Counted from the stretch's first letter, positions 1 through 60,302 are shown. The stretch is 63,716 bases of DNA from Candidatus Peregrinibacteria bacterium (GCA_016206505.1 JACQRJ010000027.1:1-63716); one strand, 5' to 3'. Made by a program: numbers and translations. The notes: generated by a model from the letters alone, not told the origin.

Positions 1-187
1 GCCCATGAATCAGTCAACAATTCGGTAAGAAAATCACTCAATTTTCAAAAATACCTCATTGAAAAACAAGATTCGAGTTATTTTACTTCTAATTCAACAC
101 TCTCAGGGGAGCTTTGTTTTTCGAGGTGCGAATTGAGCCCATCGCTTGGCGAGGGCGAACCTGAGCAGCGAGAAAAATAAGGCTCCC

Positions 188-1960
188 CTACAGTTGAAGC
201 GAAGGCCTGATCTCAAATTCAATATTTGTGGCCAAGCTCGGCACCGTAGGTGACCAGGCCGGCCAGCTCTCGATCTCCACTTTATTGATTTCCGGAAGAT
301 TTTGAATGTAATTTTTGGCTGCTTCTATGTCTTTTCCGGCTATATGATCACGGATTTTCTCAAGCAAACGAACGCCATTTTCTTTTTCCGGATCAATAGA
401 AAACTGCTCTATGCCTTTTATATTGGCCGTAATTTTGATTTTTCCAGTCGAAGTGTTCCAGTCAAAAATTCTATAAGATGTTGATTCTTCATTGATGCGT
501 AAAAGCTCCTTTTGCGGACTTTTTTTCATCATAAGTTCCTGCTTCAAAATTTCCAGCATCCCGACGTGATCGTAATAAACCCCACTCACGGAAACTTCCC
601 CGCCGATTAGAAATTCCTTCATTTCGGCTCCGGCAGATATATTCGGCTCAAAAACACGTACTTCTGCAGTTTTTACAGCGCCTTCTCCTTCCAGCAGCAC
701 AAATGCGGTCTCATCGCCGACAAGAGTCCCTTTCTCTTTTACCGCCACCTTCAATTCATCTGTTGCCGCCTTCAAAAGTTCATCTTTGATTCTTTGCCTT
801 CCGGCTTCAATATCCTCTTCTGTCACAAAAGTAATGAAATCGGTCACTCCACCCTTCATCGGCTCGCTGCTTTCTGCGTAAATCTTCGATCTGCTGTCAT
901 CGCGCAAAGCCGGAAGAAAAAACTTGCTCGGAGAGATATTGCCCCTTTCACCGACAATTCCACCTGTAGCATCAACTATATCGGCCACAACAAATGCTGT
1001 AAGTTTCCCCGGACCGGTACTCGAAGCCTTTGGCACCGTCACCGAACTTGTGATTCTGAAAACCAAACCTTCGGCGGTCTGAAAACGTGTCTGCGCAATC
1101 AGCGGCCATTCGCTCGTTGCGGTATTGATAATTGTGATTTTTCCGCTTGCGTTTGCCCCTCTTTCCGAAAATTTCTTGCCCGTTGCAAAATGGGTTATTT
1201 CTTTTTTAACTGCTGTTGAAATGTTATAACTGGCAATCATATGAGAGGGAGTGGTTGTAAGCTCTGCGCGGTTTTTTTCATAGTCGGCCAATGTAATATT
1301 TACGGATTTTTCCAAAACGCTGGCCGAAGGCGTCAAATAAACGGTAGCTCCCGGCAAGGCGATATAAATAATAGTCAACAAAATCATTAAGCTGCCTACA
1401 ATAAGCCCAATCAGGGCATGTCTGTTCGGTGAAATAATTACAAATTTCGGTTTTTCCGGTTTTTTCTTTTCAGGATCTTTCTTGATTTTCTCTATATCCA
1501 AAGCCGATTTTCTGCCCTTTTTGCTGCCAAGAATCTGGCTGATGGAAAGTTTTTTTTCCTTTAGCCTTGTCGGTGCATCATCTTCTACTGAATTCACGCT
1601 TGCCTTGAGCGGTGTGATTTTCAACTTTTCATCTTCTTCGGTGGAAAAAAGTGCGGGCTTGCCCTCTGAATTTGCCTTGTTATAAACAGGAACGCCGATC
1701 CTTTGTGCGAGATAAATTCCATTTTTGTCATTTGTGACAAGATAGATTTTTTTACCTTCATCTTCAGCTTTTCGCTTCAGAATTTTTAAGTTAACGACGC
1801 TTTGAAACAAAATCGCTCTTTTTGGTACAACGATATAAACATCTTTGGCCATTACCGGTCGGATGCGATCAAAAATTTCACTGATCTCATCATCAATTTC
1901 CGCATAAATAACCTTCTTTTTTGGAATTATCTCCGCTTCTGATTTTTTTTCCGCAGTCAT
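188..1960 (-). CDS. Hypothetical single-pass membrane protein with an N-terminal cytoplasmic domain, one TM and a ~385-aa external domain; co-transcribed with ftsA
   Basis: 590-aa ORF. Its start abuts the ftsA stop (1960/1961). One hydrophobic helix, LIGLIVGSLMILLTIIYIALP. I recognise no family motif. Confidence 0.6.
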   Translation of the reverse strand: MTAEKKSEAEIIPKKKVIYAEIDDEISEIFDRIRPVMAKDVYIVVPKRAILFQSVVNLKILKRKAEDEGKKIYLVTNDKNGIYLAQRIGVPVYNKANSEGKPALFSTEEDEKLKITPLKASVNSVEDDAPTRLKEKKLSISQILGSKKGRKSALDIEKIKKDPEKKKPEKPKFVIISPNRHALIGLIVGSLMILLTIIYIALPGATVYLTPSASVLEKSVNITLADYEKNRAELTTTPSHMIASYNISTAVKKEITHFATGKKFSERGANASGKITIINTATSEWPLIAQTRFQTAEGLVFRITSSVTVPKASSTGPGKLTAFVVADIVDATGGIVGERGNISPSKFFLPALRDDSRSKIYAESSEPMKGGVTDFITFVTEEDIEAGRQRIKDELLKAATDELKVAVKEKGTLVGDETAFVLLEGEGAVKTAEVRVFEPNISAGAEMKEFLIGGEVSVSGVYYDHVGMLEILKQELMMKKSPQKELLRINEESTSYRIFDWNTSTGKIKITANIKGIEQFSIDPEKENGVRLLEKIRDHIAGKDIEAAKNYIQNLPEINKVEIESWPAWSPTVPSLATNIEFEIRPSLQL

Positions 1961-3434: not shown

Positions 3435-5831
3435 ATGAGCACGAAATTCAAAGTTGCAGTGCTGTGCGGCGGCCCTTCGCTTGAAAGAGGCATTTCTTTA
3501 AATTCCGCCCGCTCCGTGATGGATCACCTCCAGTCTGAGCAAATTGAAATCGTCCCGATTTACTTCGATCATTTCAAAAATCCTTATCGCATTTCCAGAT
3601 CGCAGCTTTATTCCAATACTCCTTCCGATTTTGATTTTAAGTTGATGGCCACTTCAAAGCCGCTCAAGAATGCCGCTTTTGAAAAATTGCTAAAAGGAGT
3701 TGATCTGGCTTTTCCTGTAATGCATGGTGCTTTTGGTGAAGATGGGGAGATTCAGGGCATTTTGGAAAAATTTGCCGTCCCATATGTCGGTTCCGAAAAA
3801 GAAGCGTGCAGAATTTGTTTTGATAAATATCGCGCAAACGAATTTATCAGGAAACATGGTTTCCATACGCTGCCTTCCACTGTTTTAAAAATTCACGAAC
3901 CGGACGAATTTTTGCATATTCTCACGAAATTCTTCACCGCTCATAAACTCAAAAGAGCAATAGTAAAGCCTGCAACCGGAGGATCTTCTATCGGAGTTTA
4001 TTCTGTAAATAATGTTGATGAAGCAATCAAGGCGGCCAATAACATCTTCAAAAAGCGCATCGATACCCGTGTTGTTGTTGAACCTTTTGCCGATGGTATC
4101 GAATTTACAGTTATCATTCTCCAAAACCGTTTTGGCCTTCCTGTAGCGCTTTTTCCTACAGAAATAGAAACGGATTATGCGGAAAATCAGATTTTTGATT
4201 TTCGCAAAAAATATCTCGCCACCAGACAAGTCACTTATCATTGTCCTCCGCGCTTTTCAGCGGATATTACCGAAGCTATCCAGATTCAGGCCAAACAGCT
4301 TTTTAAGCTCTTAAACATGCGTGATTTTGCCCGTTTTGATGGCTGGCTCTTCCGGGATGGCAAAAAGGGCTTTAAAATCTGGTTTTCCGATTTCAATCCG
4401 ATCAGCGGCATGGAGCAAAATAGTTTTCTTTTTCTCCAATCGGCGCAAGTAGGATTCAGTCACGGAGATTTGCTGAATTTTATTTTACGCAATGCTGCCG
4501 CCCGCAGCGGTCTGACTTTCCCTGAAAAACCCTTAGACGGTTTTCAGCACTTCCGCAAAAAAGATATCAATGTCCTCTTTGGCGGAAGCACTTCCGAACG
4601 TCAGGTTTCCATAATGAGCGGCACCAATGCCTGGCTGAAACTGCGCAAATCAAAAAAATACCGACCTCATCCGTATCTTCTCGATCTCGATGATAAGACA
4701 GTCTGGCGCTTGCCTTATTCCAAAACGCTGAATCATACTGTCGAGGAAATTTCCGCAAACTGTCACGCTGCAAAAAAGGCCGAAAAAATTCTTGGACCGA
4801 TAAGAAAACTCCTTTTACAGGAAATCGGCGCTTTACCTGGACATTTAAATGAGGAGCTTTTTATTCCCGAAAAAATGACTTTAACCGATTTTTTGAAAAA
4901 TTCCCCCTATGTCTTTATCGGATTGCACGGAGGGATAGGGGAGGATGGCACTTTGCAAAAAATGCTGGAAAAAATGCATAAGCCATTTAATGGCTCAGAT
5001 TCGAAGGCCTCGGCTCTTTGCATGGATAAATATTTGACCATTCAGGCTCTGAAAGATTTGGATGGACAGGGAATCTATGTGCCGCGCCAGTCGCTTGTCA
5101 TCGTTGCTGATCTTTTGAAATTAAAAAACAACGCATTGAAAGATTTTTGGCAAAATTTGATGCTGCATTTGAATTGTAAAAAAATAGTTGTTAAGCCCCG
5201 GGCCGACGGCTGTTCCACCGGCATTATGAAGCTTAATTCTTTCAAAGATTTGGCCATTTATCTCGATATAATTCGCAAAAAATTGCCTCACATTCCAAAA
5301 AATACCTTCAAAGATCAGGCCGGAATCATCGAAATGCCTCATATCCCGCCAAAAGATTTGATTTTTGAACAATTCATCACTACCGACAAAGTTCGCATCA
5401 TAAAAAACAAACTTAAATGGCAGAAAAATTCCGGCTGGATCGAAATTACGATGGGCCTGATCGGCAAAGAAAATCAGATGCAAGCTCTAAATCCGAGTTT
5501 GACCGTAGCTTTGGGCGATGTTTTGAGTGTTGAAGAAAAATTCCAGGGCGGAACAGGCGTAAATATCACGCCGCCGCCACAGCCCTATGTGAAGCAAAAA
5601 GCCATAGATATGGCAAAAAAACGCATGGAAATTGTGGCCAAAAAAGTAGAACTAAAAAACTACGCCCGCGTCGATGCCTTCATGGAAACCCAAACCGGCG
5701 AAATCATCATCATCGAAGTCAATACCACTCCCGCATTGACTCCATCAACCGTCCTTTATCATCAGGCTTTGACAGAGCCTACGCCAATCTATCCGACGGA
5801 ACTTTTGGAACAGATCATTGAAAATTCTTGA
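3435..5831 (+). CDS. ddl: Tandem fusion of two D-alanine--D-alanine ligase (ATP-grasp) units
   Basis: 798 aa. The N half starts KVAVLCGGPSLERGISLNSA and carries HGAFGEDGEIQGILE and KPATGGSSIG. The C half restarts INVLFGGSTSERQVSIMSG and carries HGGIGEDGTLQKMLE, KPRADGCSTG and EVNTTPALTPSTV. Confidence 0.85.
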   Translation: MSTKFKVAVLCGGPSLERGISLNSARSVMDHLQSEQIEIVPIYFDHFKNPYRISRSQLYSNTPSDFDFKLMATSKPLKNAAFEKLLKGVDLAFPVMHGAFGEDGEIQGILEKFAVPYVGSEKEACRICFDKYRANEFIRKHGFHTLPSTVLKIHEPDEFLHILTKFFTAHKLKRAIVKPATGGSSIGVYSVNNVDEAIKAANNIFKKRIDTRVVVEPFADGIEFTVIILQNRFGLPVALFPTEIETDYAENQIFDFRKKYLATRQVTYHCPPRFSADITEAIQIQAKQLFKLLNMRDFARFDGWLFRDGKKGFKIWFSDFNPISGMEQNSFLFLQSAQVGFSHGDLLNFILRNAAARSGLTFPEKPLDGFQHFRKKDINVLFGGSTSERQVSIMSGTNAWLKLRKSKKYRPHPYLLDLDDKTVWRLPYSKTLNHTVEEISANCHAAKKAEKILGPIRKLLLQEIGALPGHLNEELFIPEKMTLTDFLKNSPYVFIGLHGGIGEDGTLQKMLEKMHKPFNGSDSKASALCMDKYLTIQALKDLDGQGIYVPRQSLVIVADLLKLKNNALKDFWQNLMLHLNCKKIVVKPRADGCSTGIMKLNSFKDLAIYLDIIRKKLPHIPKNTFKDQAGIIEMPHIPPKDLIFEQFITTDKVRIIKNKLKWQKNSGWIEITMGLIGKENQMQALNPSLTVALGDVLSVEEKFQGGTGVNITPPPQPYVKQKAIDMAKKRMEIVAKKVELKNYARVDAFMETQTGEIIIIEVNTTPALTPSTVLYHQALTEPTPIYPTELLEQIIENS

Positions 5832-34354: not shown

Positions 34355-35722
34355 TCACCCTCTAAGTCCCTCCATCATCTTCACCCTCTTCTCGATCAAC
34401 TCCGCAGTTCCGATGTCGTGACGGTGAAAAACCGGCCCGGAAATACTGCAAGCCCCTTCCTCGGCGATTTTTTCCGCCTCGGAAATACTGTCCGCAATTC
34501 CAACGCAATTAACCGCCCGCGAACCGCACAAATATAAGCCATCTTCGCGTTGATCCACAGAGGCATAATAAATTCTAAAAGCATTCACTGGAATGCTTTT
34601 ATCCCCGGGGACACTTTTAGAATCCGCACCGGCACCCTCCCCGCCGCCCACCAAAATCTTTTCCCCCTTCACCGGATCATCCGGATAACCGTTTGGCACG
34701 AGATATTTGCAAACCGTCGCTTTGCGCTCAAACTCAAGCGGCAAATCGGCCAAAGTCCCATTGATAATCGCCTCGCAAACATCTACGAAATCCGTCTTCA
34801 GCAAAGGCAAAACATTCATCACTTCAGGATCGCCGAAACGCGCATTATATTCAATCAACTTCACACCATCTTTTGTCGCCATAAAACCGCCATACATCAC
34901 GCCTTTGAACTCAGTGCCTGTTTCCTCAAAAAGAGCCTTCGCAACATTTCGCGTAATCTCCGCCGCCTCAAGAACATCTGAAGATCTCAAAAACGGCAAA
35001 GAATGATCTGCATCGCTATACGAGCCCATCCCTCCCGTGTTTCCACCTTTGTCGCCATCAAAAGCTCTTTTGTGATCCTGCACCGCCGGCATTTCACAGG
35101 TAAAATTTCCATCGCAAAAACTCATCAACGAAAACTCTTGACCGATCAGTTTTTCCTCCACAACAACTCGTCCATCCTCCCTCAAACATTCAAGCGCAAA
35201 TTCCAATCCCTCTGCCTTTCCATTGAGATGATCTCCTGAAACTTTCACACCTTTTCCGCCCTTAAGTCCGTCCGCTTTCACCACAAAATCATCTCCCAAT
35301 TCCTCAAAAAATTCTTTCAATCCTTCTTCACTGTCAAAAGAACGAAAGCGGGCATTTCCGGCAATCCCATATTTCGAAAGCAATTCCCTTGTAAAACCCT
35401 TCGACGATTCCAGCCGCCCCACGGTAGCAAGTGGCGAAGCGCTTTTGAAACCAGCCTCAAGCAAACCATCAACAACCCCCGCCGCAATCGGCGCTTCCGG
35501 CCCAACCACGGCAAAATCAACGCCGCATTTGCGCGCAAATTCAACAATCGCCGCAACATCACAAACATCAGCTATCAAATAATCCTTTGCCAAAGCACTC
35601 AAACCCGGATTTTTCGCTCCCCCCACAACAAAAATCTCAACCTCATGCCGACTTCGCATAAAAGTCTCAGCAATAACATGTTCCCGCGCACCACTACCAA
35701 TTATCAGGACTTTTTTAGCCAT
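34355..35722 (-). CDS. purD: Phosphoribosylamine--glycine ligase
   Basis: KVLIIGSGAREHVIAE N-terminus; ATP-grasp core; IEYNARFGDPE. Confidence 0.9.
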   Translation of the reverse strand: MAKKVLIIGSGAREHVIAETFMRSRHEVEIFVVGGAKNPGLSALAKDYLIADVCDVAAIVEFARKCGVDFAVVGPEAPIAAGVVDGLLEAGFKSASPLATVGRLESSKGFTRELLSKYGIAGNARFRSFDSEEGLKEFFEELGDDFVVKADGLKGGKGVKVSGDHLNGKAEGLEFALECLREDGRVVVEEKLIGQEFSLMSFCDGNFTCEMPAVQDHKRAFDGDKGGNTGGMGSYSDADHSLPFLRSSDVLEAAEITRNVAKALFEETGTEFKGVMYGGFMATKDGVKLIEYNARFGDPEVMNVLPLLKTDFVDVCEAIINGTLADLPLEFERKATVCKYLVPNGYPDDPVKGEKILVGGGEGAGADSKSVPGDKSIPVNAFRIYYASVDQREDGLYLCGSRAVNCVGIADSISEAEKIAEEGACSISGPVFHRHDIGTAELIEKRVKMMEGLRG

Positions 35723-38192: not shown

Positions 38193-38298
38193 GAAGTAGC
38201 GAGCAGACACGAGCGCAAGCGAGTGTCCATAGCCGAAGCGGTTCGCGAATTTAGCGAACCCGAAGGCTTTAGGAGAACCTTTCAAGAAATTTGCAAAC
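38193..38298 (-). repeat. Intergenic structured repeat, copy 1 (divergent/partial)
   Basis: Shares AGCCGAAGCG, the hairpin GGTTCGC-GAATTTA-GCGAACC and GGAGAAC..TTTCAAG with copies 2 and 3. Its right end overlaps the tmk stop. Confidence 0.75.
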
Positions 38299-38872
38299 TC
38301 TCTTTCACCACCTCCCAAAGCCGATCGGTCGTGATATCCCAATTTTTATCCACCAAAACTTTTTTCCAACAGTACTTCTCACCCAAATTCGCAAAAATTT
38401 CACGGCATTTTTCTGTTAATGCTTCATTTTTCTCATGCACATGCAGATTTTCAATCGCCGCAACATCGCGCACGCCTTCCATCAAAATTGCCAAACCTTC
38501 TTTGATAAGTTTTCCGTTTATACATTCCAGAAAATCCTCTTCAAGACCTTTTGCCATTCCCCAGGCGACCCCCGTGCCGATATAATCCTCGGCCACAACA
38601 TTTACACCATCCTCCAGCATCGAAATAAGTTTAGGCTGAAACTGATAACGATTCATCACAAACCACATTTGCAATTCATCCTCTGATATTTTTTGCTCAC
38701 CGCTGCGCAAAACATCGTTCAGCAAGGGGCCTGTCGGAGCAAGATCATAAATCGGATATTTGATATATTCCGCCTTCAAGCCATAACCTCGCAATTTTTC
38801 CACAAGCCTTTTGGCCTGTGTGGTTTTGCCAATATTGTTTATCCCGTAAAGTGTGATGAATTTTCCCCGCAT
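38282..38872 (-). CDS. tmk: Thymidylate kinase-like nucleotide kinase
   Basis: P-loop FITLYGINNIGKTTQAKRL resembles dTMP kinase GxDGxGKTTQ. 196 aa. Confidence 0.6.
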   Translation of the reverse strand: MRGKFITLYGINNIGKTTQAKRLVEKLRGYGLKAEYIKYPIYDLAPTGPLLNDVLRSGEQKISEDELQMWFVMNRYQFQPKLISMLEDGVNVVAEDYIGTGVAWGMAKGLEEDFLECINGKLIKEGLAILMEGVRDVAAIENLHVHEKNEALTEKCREIFANLGEKYCWKKVLVDKNWDITTDRLWEVVKESLQIS

Positions 38873-39108
38873 TAAGTTGTTGTAAAAATTTTAACAACAG
38901 AAAACCAACTGTTTAAAATCGCTTTCATTATAACATTTTCAATATTCAACGTATCGTTTCCTGCTTGATTTTTAGCAATATTTCTGTATCATACAAGTAA
39001 AGCCAAGCGGATCGTAACTACGGTTCCTCTCGGGTCGCACAGAAGCCTTTCCTGGACGGAAGGCTTTTCTGTAATACGATTAAATAACCTGGTGGAGATA
39101 GTTTTAAA

Positions 39109-39182
39109 GGGGCCGTAGTTTAATGGTAAAACGCTTGGCCGCGGCCCGAGAGATGCCGGTTCAAATCCGGTCGGCTCCACCA
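39109..39182 (+). tRNA. Atypical tRNA: anticodon loop CCGCGGC (GCG, C33) with an Ala-type acceptor stem (G3:U70, A73)
   Basis: GGGGCCG-TA-GTTT-AATGGTA-AAAC-G-CTTGG-CCGCGGC-CCGAG-AGAT-GCCGG-TTCAAAT-CCGGT-CGGCTCC-A-CCA folds as a canonical 74-nt cloverleaf. Confidence 0.7.
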
Positions 39183-39184
39183 GG

Positions 39185-39321
39185 CAAAGTAGCGAAATTT
39201 GCGCTCCAAAGCCGAAGTGGCACGCGAATTTAGCGTGACCGTAGGCGAAGGAGAACTTTCAAGCAAAATGCAAACGTACGTGCAGCATCTTGCGTAGAAA
39301 GTTCAGCAAATTCCTATTGAA
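39185..39321 (-). repeat. Intergenic structured repeat, copy 2
   Basis: 137 nt, ungapped. 123/137 identical to copy 3 by hand alignment. Starts 3 nt after the tRNA CCA end. Its right end overlaps the dut stop codon. Confidence 0.9.
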
Positions 39322-39784
39322 CAAAATTATATCCACCCGTACTCCCAAACCCTCCGCGGCTCTCTACAGAGATTTCTTCAACTTCCTGCCACTGAAACTT
39401 ATCAATTTTTACAAAAACTCCCTGAGCGATCTTTTCGCCGCGCAAAATTTTCACAGTATCCGAAGTGAAATTATAAACCAAAACTTTTATCTCATCATTC
39501 GGCCCGCAATAATCATGATCGATAATCCCAAAACCATGTGGTGGACTGATGCCTTTCTTTATTGGTGTACTGCTGCGACTTGCGATCACAAGCATGTAAC
39601 CTTTTGGCACTTCTACGATCAAATTTGCAGCAACCAAGCCGATTTTTGCCGGCAAAACCTCGGTGTCTTCGCGCGCGATAATGTCAAAACCAACCGAACC
39701 GTCGGTTTCATAGACCGGCAAAGGCAAGGATTTATCGATTCTTTTTATCTTAACTTCCATCACAAAGTAAGATAAATTACTCAA
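39314..39784 (-). CDS. dut: dUTP diphosphatase
   Basis: GSVGFDI, SRSS, GIIDHDY and C-terminal RGGFGSTG dUTPase motifs. Confidence 0.85.
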   Translation of the reverse strand: MSNLSYFVMEVKIKRIDKSLPLPVYETDGSVGFDIIAREDTEVLPAKIGLVAANLIVEVPKGYMLVIASRSSTPIKKGISPPHGFGIIDHDYCGPNDEIKVLVYNFTSDTVKILRGEKIAQGVFVKIDKFQWQEVEEISVESRGGFGSTGGYNFVQ

Positions 39785-39787
39785 GCC

Positions 39788-40852
39788 TTGAAAAACAATA
39801 TGAATTTCAGAAATCTCAATGTTCTCGTTCTAAATTGGCTTCTTATCCTCGCCGCTCCGGTTGATGCCGCCCCTAAAGCCAAGATTGATTTTGCCGTCGG
39901 TGGCCAAGCTGTGATTGAGGGAGTAATGATGCGCTCTCCCAGATCTTTGACTATCGCCGTTCGCAAGCCTGATAAAAAAATTAAAGTCAAAAAGGATCAC
40001 CATTTAACAATTTGTCAGAAATATCCAAAATTAAACATTCCCATTGTTAGGGGAGTGATCAATCTTTTTGAAATGATGATAATTGGGACCAAAGCCATCA
40101 ACTGGTCGGCAAATGAGAGTATCAGAGATGAGGAGGAACATAGTGACGACTCATCTCCAAAAATAAATAAGCAACACGCTCTGGAAAAACATGAAGAGGA
40201 ATCAAAATCTAAATTAAGCAAGTTCTACGAACTCCTCATGTTTTCCCTCTCCCTCGCCCTCGCCATCGGCTTCAGCCTTTTCCTTTTCAAATTTGTACCG
40301 CTCGGCATCACCTCATTGATCGACAAAAATTTTTCAACGGTTCATGAGAATTTCCTATTTTTCAATTTCATTGACGGCACACTAAAAGCCACGATTTTCC
40401 TCACTTACATCTGGCTTCTTTCTCTTATCCCCAGTTTTCGCCGCGTTTTTGAATACCACGGCGCCGAGCACAAATCCATTTTCACCTATGAAAATAAGCT
40501 CGATTTAAAAGTTGAAAATGCAAAAAAACAAACCCGCTTCCATCCCCGTTGCGGCACCAGTTTCATCATCATCGTTTTCATCATCAGCATTTTTGCTTAC
40601 ACACTTTTGCCAAAGCAGGATACTTTCATTGAAAATTTCCTTCTGCGCGTTACTTTTTTGCCGCTTGTAGCCGGCCTTTCTTATGAAGCCCTCAAGATTA
40701 GTGCAAAGTATTCCACAAGCGCTTTTGTAAAACCTCTTATCGCTCCCGGCCTGGCCTTCCAGCGTCTCACTACAAAAGAGCCGAAAGACGGTCAGCTCGA
40801 AGTCGGCCTCGAATCACTCAAGGCCGCATTGGAGATGGAAAAGCAAATATAA
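39788..40852 (+). CDS. DUF1385 (YqhQ-like) membrane protein
   Basis: VGGQAVIEGVMMRSP and EYHGAEHK motifs typical of DUF1385. Acidic insert near residue 110-150. Confidence 0.8.
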   Translation: MKNNMNFRNLNVLVLNWLLILAAPVDAAPKAKIDFAVGGQAVIEGVMMRSPRSLTIAVRKPDKKIKVKKDHHLTICQKYPKLNIPIVRGVINLFEMMIIGTKAINWSANESIRDEEEHSDDSSPKINKQHALEKHEEESKSKLSKFYELLMFSLSLALAIGFSLFLFKFVPLGITSLIDKNFSTVHENFLFFNFIDGTLKATIFLTYIWLLSLIPSFRRVFEYHGAEHKSIFTYENKLDLKVENAKKQTRFHPRCGTSFIIIVFIISIFAYTLLPKQDTFIENFLLRVTFLPLVAGLSYEALKISAKYSTSAFVKPLIAPGLAFQRLTTKEPKDGQLEVGLESLKAALEMEKQI

Positions 40853-40956
40853 TTTTGATAAAACCCGTATTCAAATAATGTGTCTTTTTGCCGAAAAAAA
40901 CTTGACTCTTTTATCAAAAAGTAAGAAAAATTACTGCAAATTTAATCAATTGAATT

Positions 40957-41199
40957 ATGTCTGAATCTAATAAACAAGATAGCGCAGGAGATGATTTAAC
41001 AGCAATGTCGGGACCAACGAGACCAAAAGGTGTCCTCCATCTGGACACCTTCCGGGAAGCTGAACATGCAGCTCAGCACCCATGGTCTCCATCTACAATT
41101 AGGCTTGAAGACCCAGAAACAAGGGCTATACGTGCACAATTGTCTCAAGCAACAAGAGCAGCTACGAATGCAGATAAAAATACAGATGAAGAGGCGTAA
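40957..41199 (+). CDS. Small hypothetical protein
   Basis: 80-aa ORF followed by a strong terminator. No similarity recognised. Confidence 0.3.
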   Translation: MSESNKQDSAGDDLTAMSGPTRPKGVLHLDTFREAEHAAQHPWSPSTIRLEDPETRAIRAQLSQATRAATNADKNTDEEA

Positions 41200-41212
41200 A
41201 TTTCAGCTCAAT

Positions 41213-41240
41213 AAAAAAGTGTCCCCGGGGACACTTTTTT
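41213..41240. terminator. Bidirectional rho-independent terminator
   Basis: AAAAAA-GTGTCCCC/GGGGACAC-TTTTTT perfect palindrome between the convergent ORF 40957 and rplA. Confidence 0.7.
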
Positions 41241-41292
41241 ACATTTTTAAATCAAAACCTCAGGCTCAAATTTCTCATTTCTCACACCTCCT

Positions 41293-41994
41293 TTACCTAC
41301 TCGCATTAACCGCATCATTTACTTCTACAGCAACTGAAGGTCCCATAGTGGTTGTAACTGTTACACTGTTCATGTAAGTACCTTTCTGTGAAGATGGTTT
41401 AACTTCCATAACGGCTTTCACAATCGCCTTCAAATTTTCCTTCAACTTATCCGTACCGAAAGATACTTTGCCAAAAAGTACATGCAAATTTCCATCTTTA
41501 TCTACGCGAAGCTCCACCTTGCCTTTTTTCAACTCCACAATCATTCTCTCAAAATCCGGCCCGACAGTTCCGGCCTTTGGATTTGGCATCAATCTCTTTT
41601 GCCCCAGTACTTTTGCAACTTTTCCCAATTCCTTCATCTGATCCGGTGTCGCAATCGCCACGTCAAAATCGGTCCACCCTTTTTCAATTTTCTTAATCAA
41701 ATCATCTGTTCCGGCGGTAGTAGCGCCGGCGGCTTTTGCAGCCTTGGCCTGACTTTCATCCACAAAAGCCACAACCCTCACATCTTTACCCGTACCATGC
41801 GGCAAAGAAACCGTGGTTCTGATATTTTGATCGGCCTGTTTTGTATCGATTCCAAGATTAAAATGAACTTCGCAACCACTATCAAATTTTGTGATTGCTG
41901 TTTTTGGCAGAAGCTCCAATGCTTCTTGAAATTTGTAAAGCGGCTTATCAATTAATTTGATAACTGCCAAGTATTTCTTTCCACGTTTAGCCAT
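41293..41994 (-). CDS. rplA: 50S ribosomal protein L1
   Basis: MAKRGKKYL start, GTGKDVRVVAF, ATPDQM motifs. Confidence 0.9.
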   Translation of the reverse strand: MAKRGKKYLAVIKLIDKPLYKFQEALELLPKTAITKFDSGCEVHFNLGIDTKQADQNIRTTVSLPHGTGKDVRVVAFVDESQAKAAKAAGATTAGTDDLIKKIEKGWTDFDVAIATPDQMKELGKVAKVLGQKRLMPNPKAGTVGPDFERMIVELKKGKVELRVDKDGNLHVLFGKVSFGTDKLKENLKAIVKAVMEVKPSSQKGTYMNSVTVTTTMGPSVAVEVNDAVNASR

Positions 41995-42053
41995 ATAAAT
42001 GTTGTTAGTGGTGCAAACCCCCGTAAGGAACGGGGTCCCACGAAATAAATAAA

Positions 42054-42479
42054 TTAACCTTCAAATTTCACTCCCATACTGCGTGCTGTTCCGGCAATAA
42101 TTTTCACCGCCTGATCCATTTCATTTGCATTGATATCCTCCCATTTGCGCTTGGCTATGTCCTCAGCTTGTTTTCTGGTCAAAACTCCAACTTTATCTTT
42201 ATGCGGAGCCGCTGATCCCTTTTCCAGCTTCAATGCTTCCTTGATCAGCACTGCCGCTGGCGGACTTTTAAGGATAAAAGTAAAACTTCTGTCGTCAAAA
42301 ATGGTAATTATTACAGGCACTGTAGTACTTCCCATTTCCTTGGTCTGGTTGTTAAATTGCATACAAAAATCCTGCATATTTACACCATGAGGGCCCAGAG
42401 CCGTACCCACGGGAGGCGCCGGATTGGCCTTTCCTGCGGGAAGCTGCAGTTTGACCATAGCTTTTATTTCTTTAGCCAT
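42054..42479 (-). CDS. rplK: 50S ribosomal protein L11
   Basis: [34 protein letters not shown]. Confidence 0.9.
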
Positions 42480-42572
42480 AAAATTTGTTTAATTTTGCTA
42501 AAATTCGTTCTTAACCGAGTGCGTAATAACGAAATTCTAGGTATTTTTTGCGAAAAGTCAAACCAATTCAAA

Positions 42573-43370
42573 TCAAAACTCATAATCCAGCAAAGTTATC
42601 AGATTTCTGATCTGTGCGTGATATTCTTTTGGATAAGAAAATGCGTAAATCATATTGCTGATTTTCACCGTCAAAAATGCCACGCCGGAGCGCTTGGCAT
42701 CATTCATAAAAAAAGATCCCTGTCCAAACTCATTAGTTTCATTTATCTCTGTATCAAGTCCTTCCGAAGCTCTTACTTTCAAAACTTCGTAAACCTCGGT
42801 GATCGAACTAGCCGGTCCGACCTGTAAAACATAAATTTTAGCTAATAAAATTTCAGCGCTTTTCACGAGTGTCTTTGTCACATTCAAATCATACAAATCA
42901 TCCACATAAACGGTTTTAAAGACAAAACCGTTATGGGGCTCATTTGAAAGAATTGCATTTGCAAAGCCAGAGCTCTTGATCTGATCATCACGGATATAAA
43001 CATTTGTTGCCCAATTGGCATAATTTTCACTTTCAAAATCGGAGGAATCTTCCGCATTGGTATTGCTATCCAGAGTCGTACTGGCAGAAACTTCCAGGCT
43101 GGAAGCATCCGAACTCTCTCTAGATATGCCATCCCCTTCATCAATCTGCGCAGAGTCAACAGGATCGGTTGCAACAGAAGAACCCAGCACATTTGTCTCC
43201 ATACTTTTGCTCAAATCCAGACTCTCCGGCAATGGCACTTCCGTACCATCGGATAAAACTTCTTCCGAAGCACCTTCTTCAACGGGAAAATAATCATTCA
43301 TGGCAATTTCCGCCATCACAACTATCACTATAATGGTCAGAAGAACCGTAAAAACTGTAAATTTTCGCAT
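42573..43370 (-). CDS. Hypothetical N-terminally anchored protein inserted between nusG and rplK
   Basis: 265 aa. TM FTVFTVLLTIIVIVVMAEIAM, an acidic Ser/Asp-rich linker and a C-terminal globular part. No family recognised. Confidence 0.55.
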   Translation of the reverse strand: MRKFTVFTVLLTIIVIVVMAEIAMNDYFPVEEGASEEVLSDGTEVPLPESLDLSKSMETNVLGSSVATDPVDSAQIDEGDGISRESSDASSLEVSASTTLDSNTNAEDSSDFESENYANWATNVYIRDDQIKSSGFANAILSNEPHNGFVFKTVYVDDLYDLNVTKTLVKSAEILLAKIYVLQVGPASSITEVYEVLKVRASEGLDTEINETNEFGQGSFFMNDAKRSGVAFLTVKISNMIYAFSYPKEYHAQIRNLITLLDYEF

Positions 43371-43419
43371 CTAAACTTGGAATATTGGAATAAGGGAATA
43401 TCCAAATCAAAGCTTATGA

Positions 43420-43556
43420 CAAAGTAGCGAGATTTGCAATCCGAAGCCGAAGCGTCACGCGAATTTAGCGTGACCGGAGGCGAAGGAGAACTTTCAAACA
43501 AAATGCCAACGAAGGTGCAGCATTTTGTGTAGAAAGTTCAGCAAATCCCTATTGAA
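43420..43556 (-). repeat. Intergenic structured repeat, copy 3
   Basis: 137 nt. Hairpins GTCACGC-GAATTTA-GCGTGAC and ACAAAATGC-N13-GCATTTTGT. Ends 13 nt from the nusG stop. Confidence 0.9.
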
Positions 43557-43568
43557 AAACATCAAAAT

Positions 43569-44114
43569 TTACTTTTTTTTGATCTGCGTAAAATCCAGTT
43601 CAACCGGAGTCTCTCGTCCGAAGATTGTAATAAGAACCTTAACTTTACCCTTTTCTTCATCAATATTGCTGATAACTCCTTCATAATTGGCAAAAGGCCC
43701 TTCCAAAACCACCACATGATCGTTGTCAGTAAAGTCGATTTTGAATTTAGGCTCAGCCTGACCCATATGTTTTTTAATCACTTTCCACTCTTCCGGAGAG
43801 ACAGGCACGGGAATAGTTCCAGAGCCTACAAACCCCGTAACATTTGGAGTATTTCTCACCACATACCAACTGTCATCGGTCACGACCATATCAACAAGAA
43901 CATAGCCTGGAAAAATGCGCTTTTCTTGAGTAATCGGCTCACCCTTCTTGATGACGATTTCAGTTTCCTTTGGTACAACAACATCAAAAATCAAATCCTG
44001 CATGCCCAACGACTCGATACGTTGAAGCAAAGCCTCACGCACCGCATCTTCATAACCTGAATAAGTGTGAACCACATACCAATGGCGACCTGTATCTTTC
44101 GCTTGTCGTGACAT
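43569..44114 (-). CDS. nusG: Transcription termination/antitermination factor NusG
   Basis: WYVVHTYSGYEDAV (NGN) and C-terminal KOW (GPFANYEGVISNID...KVKVLITIFGRETPVEL). Confidence 0.9.
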   Translation of the reverse strand: MSRQAKDTGRHWYVVHTYSGYEDAVREALLQRIESLGMQDLIFDVVVPKETEIVIKKGEPITQEKRIFPGYVLVDMVVTDDSWYVVRNTPNVTGFVGSGTIPVPVSPEEWKVIKKHMGQAEPKFKIDFTDNDHVVVLEGPFANYEGVISNIDEEKGKVKVLITIFGRETPVELDFTQIKKK

Positions 44115-59771: not shown

Positions 59772-60302
59772 ATGGATATTAAAGATCAGCCATTACAGGC
59801 AAATGCACCGGCATCACCTCAACCACCCGTTGCACCTTCTCAGTCAGATATCGCGGCAGAATCTGTCCAAGCCGCACCGGTTCAATCAATCCCGTCGTCC
59901 GCCACCCGGTCCGATTCTGCACAGACTGCATCAATTCTATCTACTCCAGCATCCATCCCCACCGAAGAGCATCAAACCGCGAAAAGGTCTCACAAAAGCC
60001 TGATAATCGGAATAATTTTAGCCGCCATAGTAGTCGTTTCCGGCTTAAGCGTTTTCATCGGCTTCAACAATTCCAGTCAATATCAGGGATTCTTAAAAAA
60101 AATCGAGGCTGAAACTGAAAAATTACAGGCACAAGATGCGCAAAAAGCTGCCTCCGAAAGTCCACAATCCACAGAAAGTATCCCCGGGGATACTTTTGAA
60201 AACCCCGCATCCGCCCTGCCTCCAATGCCGGCCGAAACCTCACCGCAAGCCCCTGCGCCCGCCGATGAAGCCCCCGCGCCCGACGAAGGCCTGACAAGGT
60301 AG
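59772..60302 (+). CDS. Pro/Ala/Ser-rich single-TM protein
   Basis: The ATG at 59772 lies 1 nt after the upstream stop; the ORF-track start at 59718 would overlap. TM LIIGIILAAIVVVSGLSVFIGF. Confidence 0.5.
   Translation: MDIKDQPLQANAPASPQPPVAPSQSDIAAESVQAAPVQSIPSSATRSDSAQTASILSTPASIPTEEHQTAKRSHKSLIIGIILAAIVVVSGLSVFIGFNNSSQYQGFLKKIEAETEKLQAQDAQKAASESPQSTESIPGDTFENPASALPPMPAETSPQAPAPADEAPAPDEGLTR

Follow-up and report, generated by a model that had tools for sequence, protein, structure and literature searches.

An apparently undescribed family of Y-shaped non-coding elements at gene and tRNA ends in groundwater Peregrinibacteria

Several families of short structured repeats are known from the ends of bacterial genes. 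The closest described systems are the repetitive extragenic palindromic (REP) sequences with the bacterial interspersed mosaic elements (BIME), the enterobacterial repetitive intergenic consensus (ERIC) sequences, the Correia elements of Neisseria and the palindromic elements of Rickettsia, as well as the attC repeats (123-126 bp in Vibrio cholerae) and the tRNA-linked repeats of Escherichia coli (RtT; RF00391), which are structured units that follow tRNA genes immediately, in some cases as tandem copies, and can yield small RNAs by processing of the tRNA transcript (PMC8144298). Here, we describe an element of about 140 nucleotides (nt) found in a contig of a Candidatus Peregrinibacteria bacterium (GCA_016206505.1, JACQRJ010000027.1:1-63716; the whole 63,716-nt stretch is called the window below), which belongs to an apparently undescribed family of Y-shaped, non-coding elements in a small group of groundwater Peregrinibacteria, members of the Candidate Phyla Radiation (CPR). 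Our analysis establishes the family, its fold with covariation, the insertional nature of its units, their high copy number, their adjacency to tRNA and gene ends, and the conservation of orthologous copies. The reading that we favor, with a probability of roughly 55%, is that of a lineage-restricted, multi-copy mobile structured module, similar to REP sequences or to miniature inverted-repeat transposable elements (MITE), that is sometimes co-opted by the host. CPR bacteria have small, densely packed genomes, for which to our knowledge few repeat families have been reported. A literature search found no published description of the present family, and the only repeats mentioned in the study of complete Peribacteria genomes are a single direct repeat and short ones close to the origin (PMC4736985).

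The window holds three copies, all on the plus strand. A pattern made of the hairpin-1 loop and its flank matched exactly three times (zero matches expected by chance), a covariance model (R1) recovered only these copies across the 63.7-kb window, and a repeat finder paired 39185-39327 with 43420-43562 at 89%. A recount of 39185-39321 against 43420-43556 (copy 2 vs. copy 3) gave 123/137 identical positions with zero indels, which bears out the copies, coordinates and identity reported in the preliminary description of this DNA. Copy 3 (43421-43559, plus strand; R1 score of 171 bits) is full length, with AAGTAGCGAG as its 5' end and CCCTATTGAA as its 3' end; it separates the nusG stop from the start of a 265-amino-acid open reading frame (ORF265) and is followed by a looser CAAAAT(T) tail that may stretch the element to about 43568; metagenome depth sets its limits at a step up at 43421 and a step down at 43556-43560. 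Copy 2 (39185-39330, plus strand; 165.9 bits) is also full length and is wedged between the 3' end (CCA+GGC) of a tRNA-Arg(GCG) gene and dut. The tRNA gene (39109-39182, plus strand; called by ARAGORN, 62.7 bits with the Rfam tRNA model) directly precedes it, with a gap of 2-3 nt after position 39182. Copy 1 (38193-38300, plus strand; 37.7 bits) is a 3'-truncated variant in which AAGTAGCGAG is followed by a different, GCAA-loop hairpin and then by arm 1 and half of arm 2; the 3' half of that arm and the closing stem's 3' strand are missing. Across the family, the 5' terminus is conserved as (A/T)(A/T)AAGTAGCGAG and the 3' terminus as CCCTATTGAA. The copies had been placed at the stop codons of the minus-strand genes tmk, dut and nusG, and this position was confirmed: the tmk stop (38282-38284) lies inside copy 1 together with the last ~7 tmk codons, and the 3' end of copy 2 encodes the last four dut codons (NFVQ) and the stop (39314-39316, CTA within CCTATTGAA), and the nusG stop (43569-43571) lies 12 nt past the CCCTATTGAA of copy 3. 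The element is non-coding, as had been claimed; stops occur in all six frames of copies 2 and 3, and a coding gene fragment was rejected on this ground.

The element folds computationally into a three-way junction made of a closing stem (P1) and two arms (copy 3: -55.4 kcal/mol on the plus strand, z = -8.5; -49.8 kcal/mol on the minus strand). That is, the two hairpins recognized previously are real, and they are the arms of a larger structure that is closed by AGUAGCGAGAUUUGC (43423-43437, plus strand) pairing with GCAAAUCCCUAUU (43541-43553, plus strand), with C28 and A30 bulged out. P1 is drawn from the fold together with covariation: one G-C pair becomes A-U in copy 2, and GAUUUGC/GCAAAUC becomes GACUUAC/GUAAGUC in L002A, a full copy from a related genome described below. 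Arm 1 (43441-43487, plus strand) reads UCC-GAA-GCC-GAAGC-[GUCACGC GAAUUUA GCGUGAC]-CGGA-GGC-GAA-GGA, the bracket marking hairpin 1, and has two purine-rich, near-symmetric internal loops. Arm 2 (43488-43539, plus strand) is predicted to be a 17-bp interrupted helix with an outer stem GAACUUUC/GAAAGUUC and an inner stem ACAAAAUGC/GCAUUUUGU.

The helices flanking the arm-1 loops are invariant in 6/6 sequences while the hairpin-1 stem covaries, and the reported change from GTCACGC/GCGTGAC in copy 3 to GGTTCGC/GCGAACC in copy 1 is correct. Metagenome variants of arm 1 add the changes 55/73 U-A to G-C, 56/72 C-G to U-A and 52/75 G-C to A-U (such pair numbers are the last three digits of window coordinates), and compensated pairs occur in these variants also at 98/128 and 102/124. 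The A:T to G:C change that closes hairpin 2 in copy 2 was likewise described correctly, although copy 2 also carries one A.C mismatch there. Both arm-2 stems of L002A differ from those of copy 3 yet stay complementary (GAAAAAGC/GCUUUUUC and GAAAUUU/AAAUUUC). Among the 14 differences between copies 2 and 3, eight are unpaired, four make up two compensated pairs and two are single-sided. Finally, in an alignment (A3) of six sequences fitted to model R1 (three full-length, three partial), 96.6% of the cells pair and 16 pairs have changed on both sides; 0/500 shuffles reached the observed value and slid controls gave 0-3.

Comparison with syntenic contigs of relatives, reached via Dut and ORF265 homologues, shows that the element is an insertion and not a fixed component of these operons. 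The idea of a conserved part of the tmk, dut and nusG loci does not hold, since syntenic relatives are without it; L009, L011 and L010, for instance, are empty at all three sites. At site 2 (tRNA-Arg/dut), L009 and L011 show the tRNA with its CCA and GGC followed directly by CCTAYAT, which contains the dut stop, so that the empty allele CCAGGC-CCTATATAGT-ATATCC can be set against the occupied one, in which the insert stands between CCAGGC and ATATCC. The same site holds an 18-nt remnant (AAAAGTAGCAAGATTTGC) in L019, a 57-nt short form in L017 and the full unit (140 nt) in the window, and every version begins at the identical base. Site 1 is empty in L009, L011, L017 and L010. Site 3 (nusG/ORF265) carries the element in L019, L020 and L021, the contigs of L020/L021 breaking within it, and is empty in L009, L022, L010, L024 and L025; its absence is ancestral, because L009 and L024 have a common ancestral spacer. 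The last codons of dut and tmk are rewritten by insertion: Dut ends in GGYTM or TI in relatives vs. GGYNFVQ in the window, and Tmk ends in SKVVPGDT in L009 vs. an insert-encoded KESLQIS in the window. More generally, in the Dut homologues P0001-P0045, the residues after GSTGGY vary in length and sequence (N, TS, TM, GQN, NPAEGGA, NPASGGIINKQL and others), a variation among Peregrinibacteria that would fit frequent indels or insertions in the stop-proximal spacer.

Several lines of evidence indicate that many more units exist than the three in the window. When Logan contigs of four groundwater metagenomes were mapped onto copy 3, the summed depth over the element was 10-60 times the flank depth; in metagenome X1, 29 contig pieces aligned and the depth was about 6 in the flanks vs. 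60-355 between 43421 and 43559. The copy number can be roughly bounded at ten to a few tens. The organism's own contigs terminate inside copies 2 and 3. The neighbors are diverse, with at least five distinct tRNA gene ends among them: the 3' ends of three different tRNAs run through GGTTCGATTCCTTCAGGGCGCACCA and TT into AAGTAGCGAG, one tRNA 5' end adjoins the same AAGTAGCGAG terminus in inverse orientation, and one element remnant adjoins a convergent tRNA. Metagenome flanks also revealed tandem junctions, with CCCTATTGAAAA joined head to tail to GTAGCGAG.

A pattern scan of genome contigs returned one true relative, in addition to three GC-rich chance matches. This relative (L002, WJKE01000031.1), a contig of a Peregrinibacteria metagenome-assembled genome, carries the full copy L002A, whose complement follows the stop codon of a YgjP-like gene; relative to copy 3, arm 1 and the termini are about 86% identical, and the inner P1 and both arm-2 stems differ with full compensation. 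Directly after it lies a second unit (L002B, about 4490-4612, minus strand) with termini AAGTAGCGAG ... CTACTATTAGAGG and an unrelated GC-rich interior, suggesting a modular family with common ends. A scan of metagenome contigs with the loop-only pattern found only chance matches in GC-rich coding repeats; requiring the GAATTTA loop is too strict, because some metagenome variants replace hairpin 1 altogether. The viral contigs scanned held nothing homologous to the element, spurious open reading frames called inside it, sought as a route to more contigs, yielded no candidates, a look-up of the L002 neighbor gene returned the same contig only, and none of the RNA-seq runs searched holds the element.

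The copy at the nusG site stands out for its conservation. Orthologous copies present at site 3 in L019 and L020 show 93-95% identity (4-6 differences in 85-118 nt, three lineages), whereas rplK and rplA of the same lineages are 80-85% identical (54-61% at third positions, 93-97% at first and second positions), and identity rises stepwise at the border of the element. The lineages form an unresolved star with L010 outside. All but one of the eight variable sites lie in or just 3' of hairpin 1, and there is hardly any variation in P1 and arm 2. Since the orthologues resemble each other more closely than do the paralogous copies 2 and 3 (89%), a simple form of concerted evolution is unlikely. 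Hence, the nusG-distal copy looks to have been kept nearly unchanged by selection. Part of the explanation may be promoter use: a putative hybrid promoter of ORF265-rplK-rplA (43411-43439, minus strand) would combine a -35-like TTGCAA within the element (43434-43439) with TAAGCT in the flank (43411-43416) at a distance of 17 nt, and in the element-free L009, L022 and L024 the corresponding position, upstream of the ORF265 homologue, reads TTGAAA-N17-TAAGCT. The insert would thus have removed that -35 box and supplied TTGCAA at equal spacing; a consensus promoter scan did not call TTGCAA-N17-TAAGCT. A promoter of the element's own was rejected, as CAAATCAAA..CTTATG upstream of copies 1 and 3 is flanking DNA that is present at empty sites too. 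The site-3 insert also replaces a hairpin that abuts the nusG stop, as found in L009. Taken together, these arrangements point to a co-option of the nusG-site copy as a transcript-end or promoter module.

With respect to the known families, the element resembles REP/BIME, ERIC, Correia and Rickettsia palindromic elements in being 100-150 nt long, non-coding and multi-copy, with an imperfect dyad and pairing ends. As with these, it lies at gene ends, would be co-transcribed with its neighbors and is present or absent among relatives; like them, it may supply promoter parts or transcript-end structures, and like the Rickettsia elements, it can reach into coding ends. The differences are substantial as well. 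Units of these families form a single hairpin vs. the branched junction described here, and a REP sequence served by a RAYT is a simple palindrome of 20-40 nt after GTAG or GTGG, as opposed to a three-way junction of ~140 nt, although GTAG is present at the 5' end of the element (AAGTAGCGAG). No target-site duplication is visible, and the short terminal repeat is imperfect, with part of it covarying: AGTAGCGAGATTTGC at one end pairs with GCAAATCCCTATT at the other at about 12/15 positions, with the outer AGTAG/CTATT conserved and the inner part covarying between species, which fits selection for a hairpin better than a fixed protein-binding repeat. Strong tRNA-end adjacency, tandem head-to-tail copies and a CPR host further set it apart from these families, and no cognate transposase of the kind that serves REP (RAYT) or insertion sequence-mobilized repeats was identified, no whole-genome search having been made. 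Against a classical MITE, the element shares the multi-copy state and the presence/absence polymorphism (seen in depth, contig breaks, and empty, remnant and full alleles), whereas it shows no target-site duplication, a defining property there.

The comparison with RtT and attC is similarly mixed. Placement directly behind tRNA genes, at times in tandem, recalls RtT, whose units, however, end in a copy of the tRNA 3' end; the element has no tRNA-derived segment (the best local match to tRNA-Arg in either orientation is 6-7 nt, no better than shuffled), so that an echo of the tRNA end was rejected, and it keeps constant termini behind different tRNAs and behind protein genes alike. No match to Rfam 15 was found at gathering or relaxed thresholds, also with the short stretch alone, and the RtT model gave none even at E up to 10, where only generic hairpin and microRNA noise appeared; the self-cleaving ribozyme classes were rejected on the lack of an Rfam match. 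Like attC, the element is of similar size, co-oriented, 3' of genes, conserved in structure over sequence, and built from a closing stem with extrahelical bases and a branched distal part. Unlike attC, it is flanked by core genes in conserved synteny (tmk, dut, nusG, rplK) and not by cassettes, with no integrase or attI nearby; attC was rejected, there being no RYYYAAC/GTTRRRY core at the ends (AAGTAGCGAG, CCCTATTGAA or their complements). The template/variable repeat of a diversity-generating retroelement was also rejected, since all four bases, and not only adenines, are affected at the 14 positions where copies 2 and 3 differ.

Of the roles offered in the preliminary description, that of a miniature mobile element targeting gene ends fits best, given the empty sites, remnants, depth and tandems. 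As for the mechanism of mobility, the active strand and the function for the host, we infer the following scenario. A unit would fold as single-stranded DNA or RNA into the three-way junction, its two ends forming P1, with arm 1 keeping its sequence and purine-rich internal loops and arm 2 free to vary in sequence as long as it pairs. Units, mobile now or until recently, would be inserted or copied, sometimes head to tail, into spacers of a few nucleotides at gene and tRNA ends by an enzyme that is presumably encoded elsewhere and recognizes the termini and the fold. Insertion would swap out a few dozen target bases, including terminal codons or a stop-adjacent hairpin, after which the unit may decay by internal deletion or be retained. 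Behind protein genes, its complement would be transcribed as a 3' untranslated region (3'-UTR) or intercistronic segment, and a secondary RNA role of this kind may have arisen by co-option. The insert at the nusG site would have replaced the stop-adjacent hairpin along with the -35 box of the next promoter and then been held near-invariant.

A number of observations weigh against this mobile-module reading. An examination of occupied vs. empty alleles showed no target-site duplication at the two comparable sites (2 and 3), and the inserts of sites 1 and 3 stand in place of target DNA (about 50 nt at site 3) instead of being simple additions, so that several events are possibly superimposed. 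Precise excision alleles were not found in the four metagenomes, where the sole joints came from other organisms. No transposase, reverse transcriptase or recombinase was linked to the element, with the same limit on searching as above. The near-invariance of P1 and arm 2 at site 3 exceeds what structural selection alone would give; a functional RNA gene, or exchange among the lineages in recent times, could account for it as well. Further, the depth sums take in other organisms in the samples, which bounds the copy number per genome only roughly, and the sequence sample is small, with the copy-1 row of A3 force-fitted in P1.

The question of the active strand bears on the alternatives. The minus-strand RNA had been proposed as the functional form on account of a C(UUCG)G tetraloop (GCTTCGGC). 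This segment, however, is the complement of an arm-1 internal-loop segment (GCCGAAGC) and is a hairpin loop in none of the folds obtained, and the argument fails because the segment is not a loop in the fold. Wobble pairs are balanced between the strands: cells that are G.U on the minus strand comprise two in L019, one in L002A and a common C at 43524, and the plus strand is favored by a conserved G.U in P1, 43458 C>T, and C75>T in L020. The G.U vs. A.C counts tie, which leaves the functional strand undecided. Behind protein genes the sense that would be co-transcribed is always the element complement and behind several tRNAs it is the plus sense; by GC skew, the plus strand is the lagging strand throughout the window. 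An alternative that we regard as quite unlikely makes the minus-strand RNA a cis-acting 3'-UTR module that would terminate transcription, stop 3' exonucleases or provide a processing site; the family would exist for the sake of this role and spread by recombination because it is useful. Such a module would account for the complement always following the stop codon behind tmk, dut, nusG, the L002 YgjP-like gene and several metagenome flanks, for the substitution of the element for the hairpin abutting the nusG stop in L009, and for the two stem-top changes in L019 that are G.U-compatible only on the minus strand. Yet an intrinsic terminator scan found none at the copies, no U-tract follows the structure on either strand (tails CUACUUUG in minus sense and UUGAACAAAAU in plus sense), and the genome does use hairpin-plus-U terminators (e.g., 41205-41232). 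The failed UUCG argument and the G.U pairs in P1 and L020 also speak against this alternative, the same genes function without the element in close relatives, and some copies adjoin tRNA genes in the opposite sense.

Similarly, it seems unlikely that the elements are a gene family for small structured RNAs that are cut out of tRNA or mRNA precursors like RtT, with the Y-fold and the arm-1 loops binding a protein or RNA and with spread by occasional duplication. The GAA/GAA-type purine-rich internal loops between invariant helices, with covarying stems, are what such genes might show; several copies, arranged in tandem and in tRNA orientation, are separated from a mature tRNA end by only 0-3 nt, and the orthologous copies are as conserved as the first and second codon positions of ribosomal protein genes. 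On the other hand, copies 1 and 3 have no plus-strand gene or promoter upstream, where the DNA is the shared 5' region of the neighboring minus-strand gene, at site 2 relatives have let the element decay (to 57 nt in one case, 18 nt in another), its orientation with respect to tRNA genes can be either of the two, and neither an Rfam match, RtT included, nor a copy of a tRNA end exists within it. Far less probable still is a non-autonomous retroelement akin to short interspersed nuclear elements, in which minus-sense RNA would be reverse-transcribed from its 3' end (..CUCGCUACUU) at a nick, incomplete copying giving 5'-truncated inserts. It is true that all three truncated copies (copy 1, the L019 remnant and the L017 short form) keep AAGTAGCGAG, i.e., the minus-sense 3' end, and that the site-3 junction shows AAAG microhomology with the target. 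But there are three cases only, a deletion between GCGA(G/T)A direct repeats would turn an L017-like form into the L019 remnant, the metagenome depth peaks at the other end (43526-43550), a templated or A-rich tail is lacking, and no reverse transcriptase was linked to the element (no whole-genome search was made). Finally, a broader proposition, that the units belong to a wider undescribed class of gene-end structured modules in CPR bacteria, self-folding as single-stranded RNA or lagging-strand-template DNA, placed by a perhaps host-encoded enzyme and then selected, strikes us as improbable; the termini and arm-1 loops would then be recognized and insertion would take place exactly at the boundaries of tRNA genes and open reading frames.

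Some features of the surrounding DNA deserve mention in their own right. The contig opens (window 1-200) with ACCTCATTGAAAAAC, which is similar to the 3' terminus of the element and is followed at about 105-190 by a long GGGGAGC...GCTCCCC hairpin; the contig start may lie inside another repeat. ORF265 (42573-43370, minus strand), between nusG and rplK, has 138 homologues and encodes a fast-evolving protein (71-72% identity where Dut shows 90%) without a Pfam domain, and the order nusG-ORF-rplK is conserved across Peregrinibacteria and some Gracilibacteria. The hairpin abutting the nusG stop in element-free relatives has a 9-bp stem, GAGAATTGC/GCAATTCTC (L009 6726-6752 and L022 9842-9868, mRNA sense), with no U-tract on the mRNA strand and a U-run on the opposite strand that comes from KKK codons. 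Ordinary terminators at 41205-41232, 34600-34620 and 60179-60199 are a recurring GTGTCCCCGGGGACAC hairpin between A- and T-runs, and can act both ways because these runs flank them; in L009, a related GTCCCCAGGGAC takes the place at the end of tmk that copy 1 takes in the window. The tRNA-Arg gene has a leader (38960-39108, plus strand; the same region exists in L009, L011, L017 and L019) that starts at a promoter-like TTGATT-16-TATCAT and contains a terminator-like hairpin as well as inverted pieces of the tRNA (GCCAAGCG..ACTACGG..TCTCGGGTCGCA, and CCTGGTGGAG). These inverted pieces co-vary with the anticodon stem of the tRNA (CTTGG/CCGAG in the window vs. ATCAG/CTGAT in L009), and therefore the complementarity between leader and tRNA is maintained.

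In practical terms, the element breaks assemblies of these organisms and alters predicted C-termini, here those of Dut and Tmk, and model R1 makes a census of copies straightforward. Should a functional RNA, or a new mechanism of insertion at tRNA boundaries, prove true, it would represent a new class for both fields. Under the mobile-module reading that we favor, a folded unit that rewrites gene ends, swaps promoter or terminator parts and then comes under purifying selection would show how regulatory turnover can take place in compact genomes.

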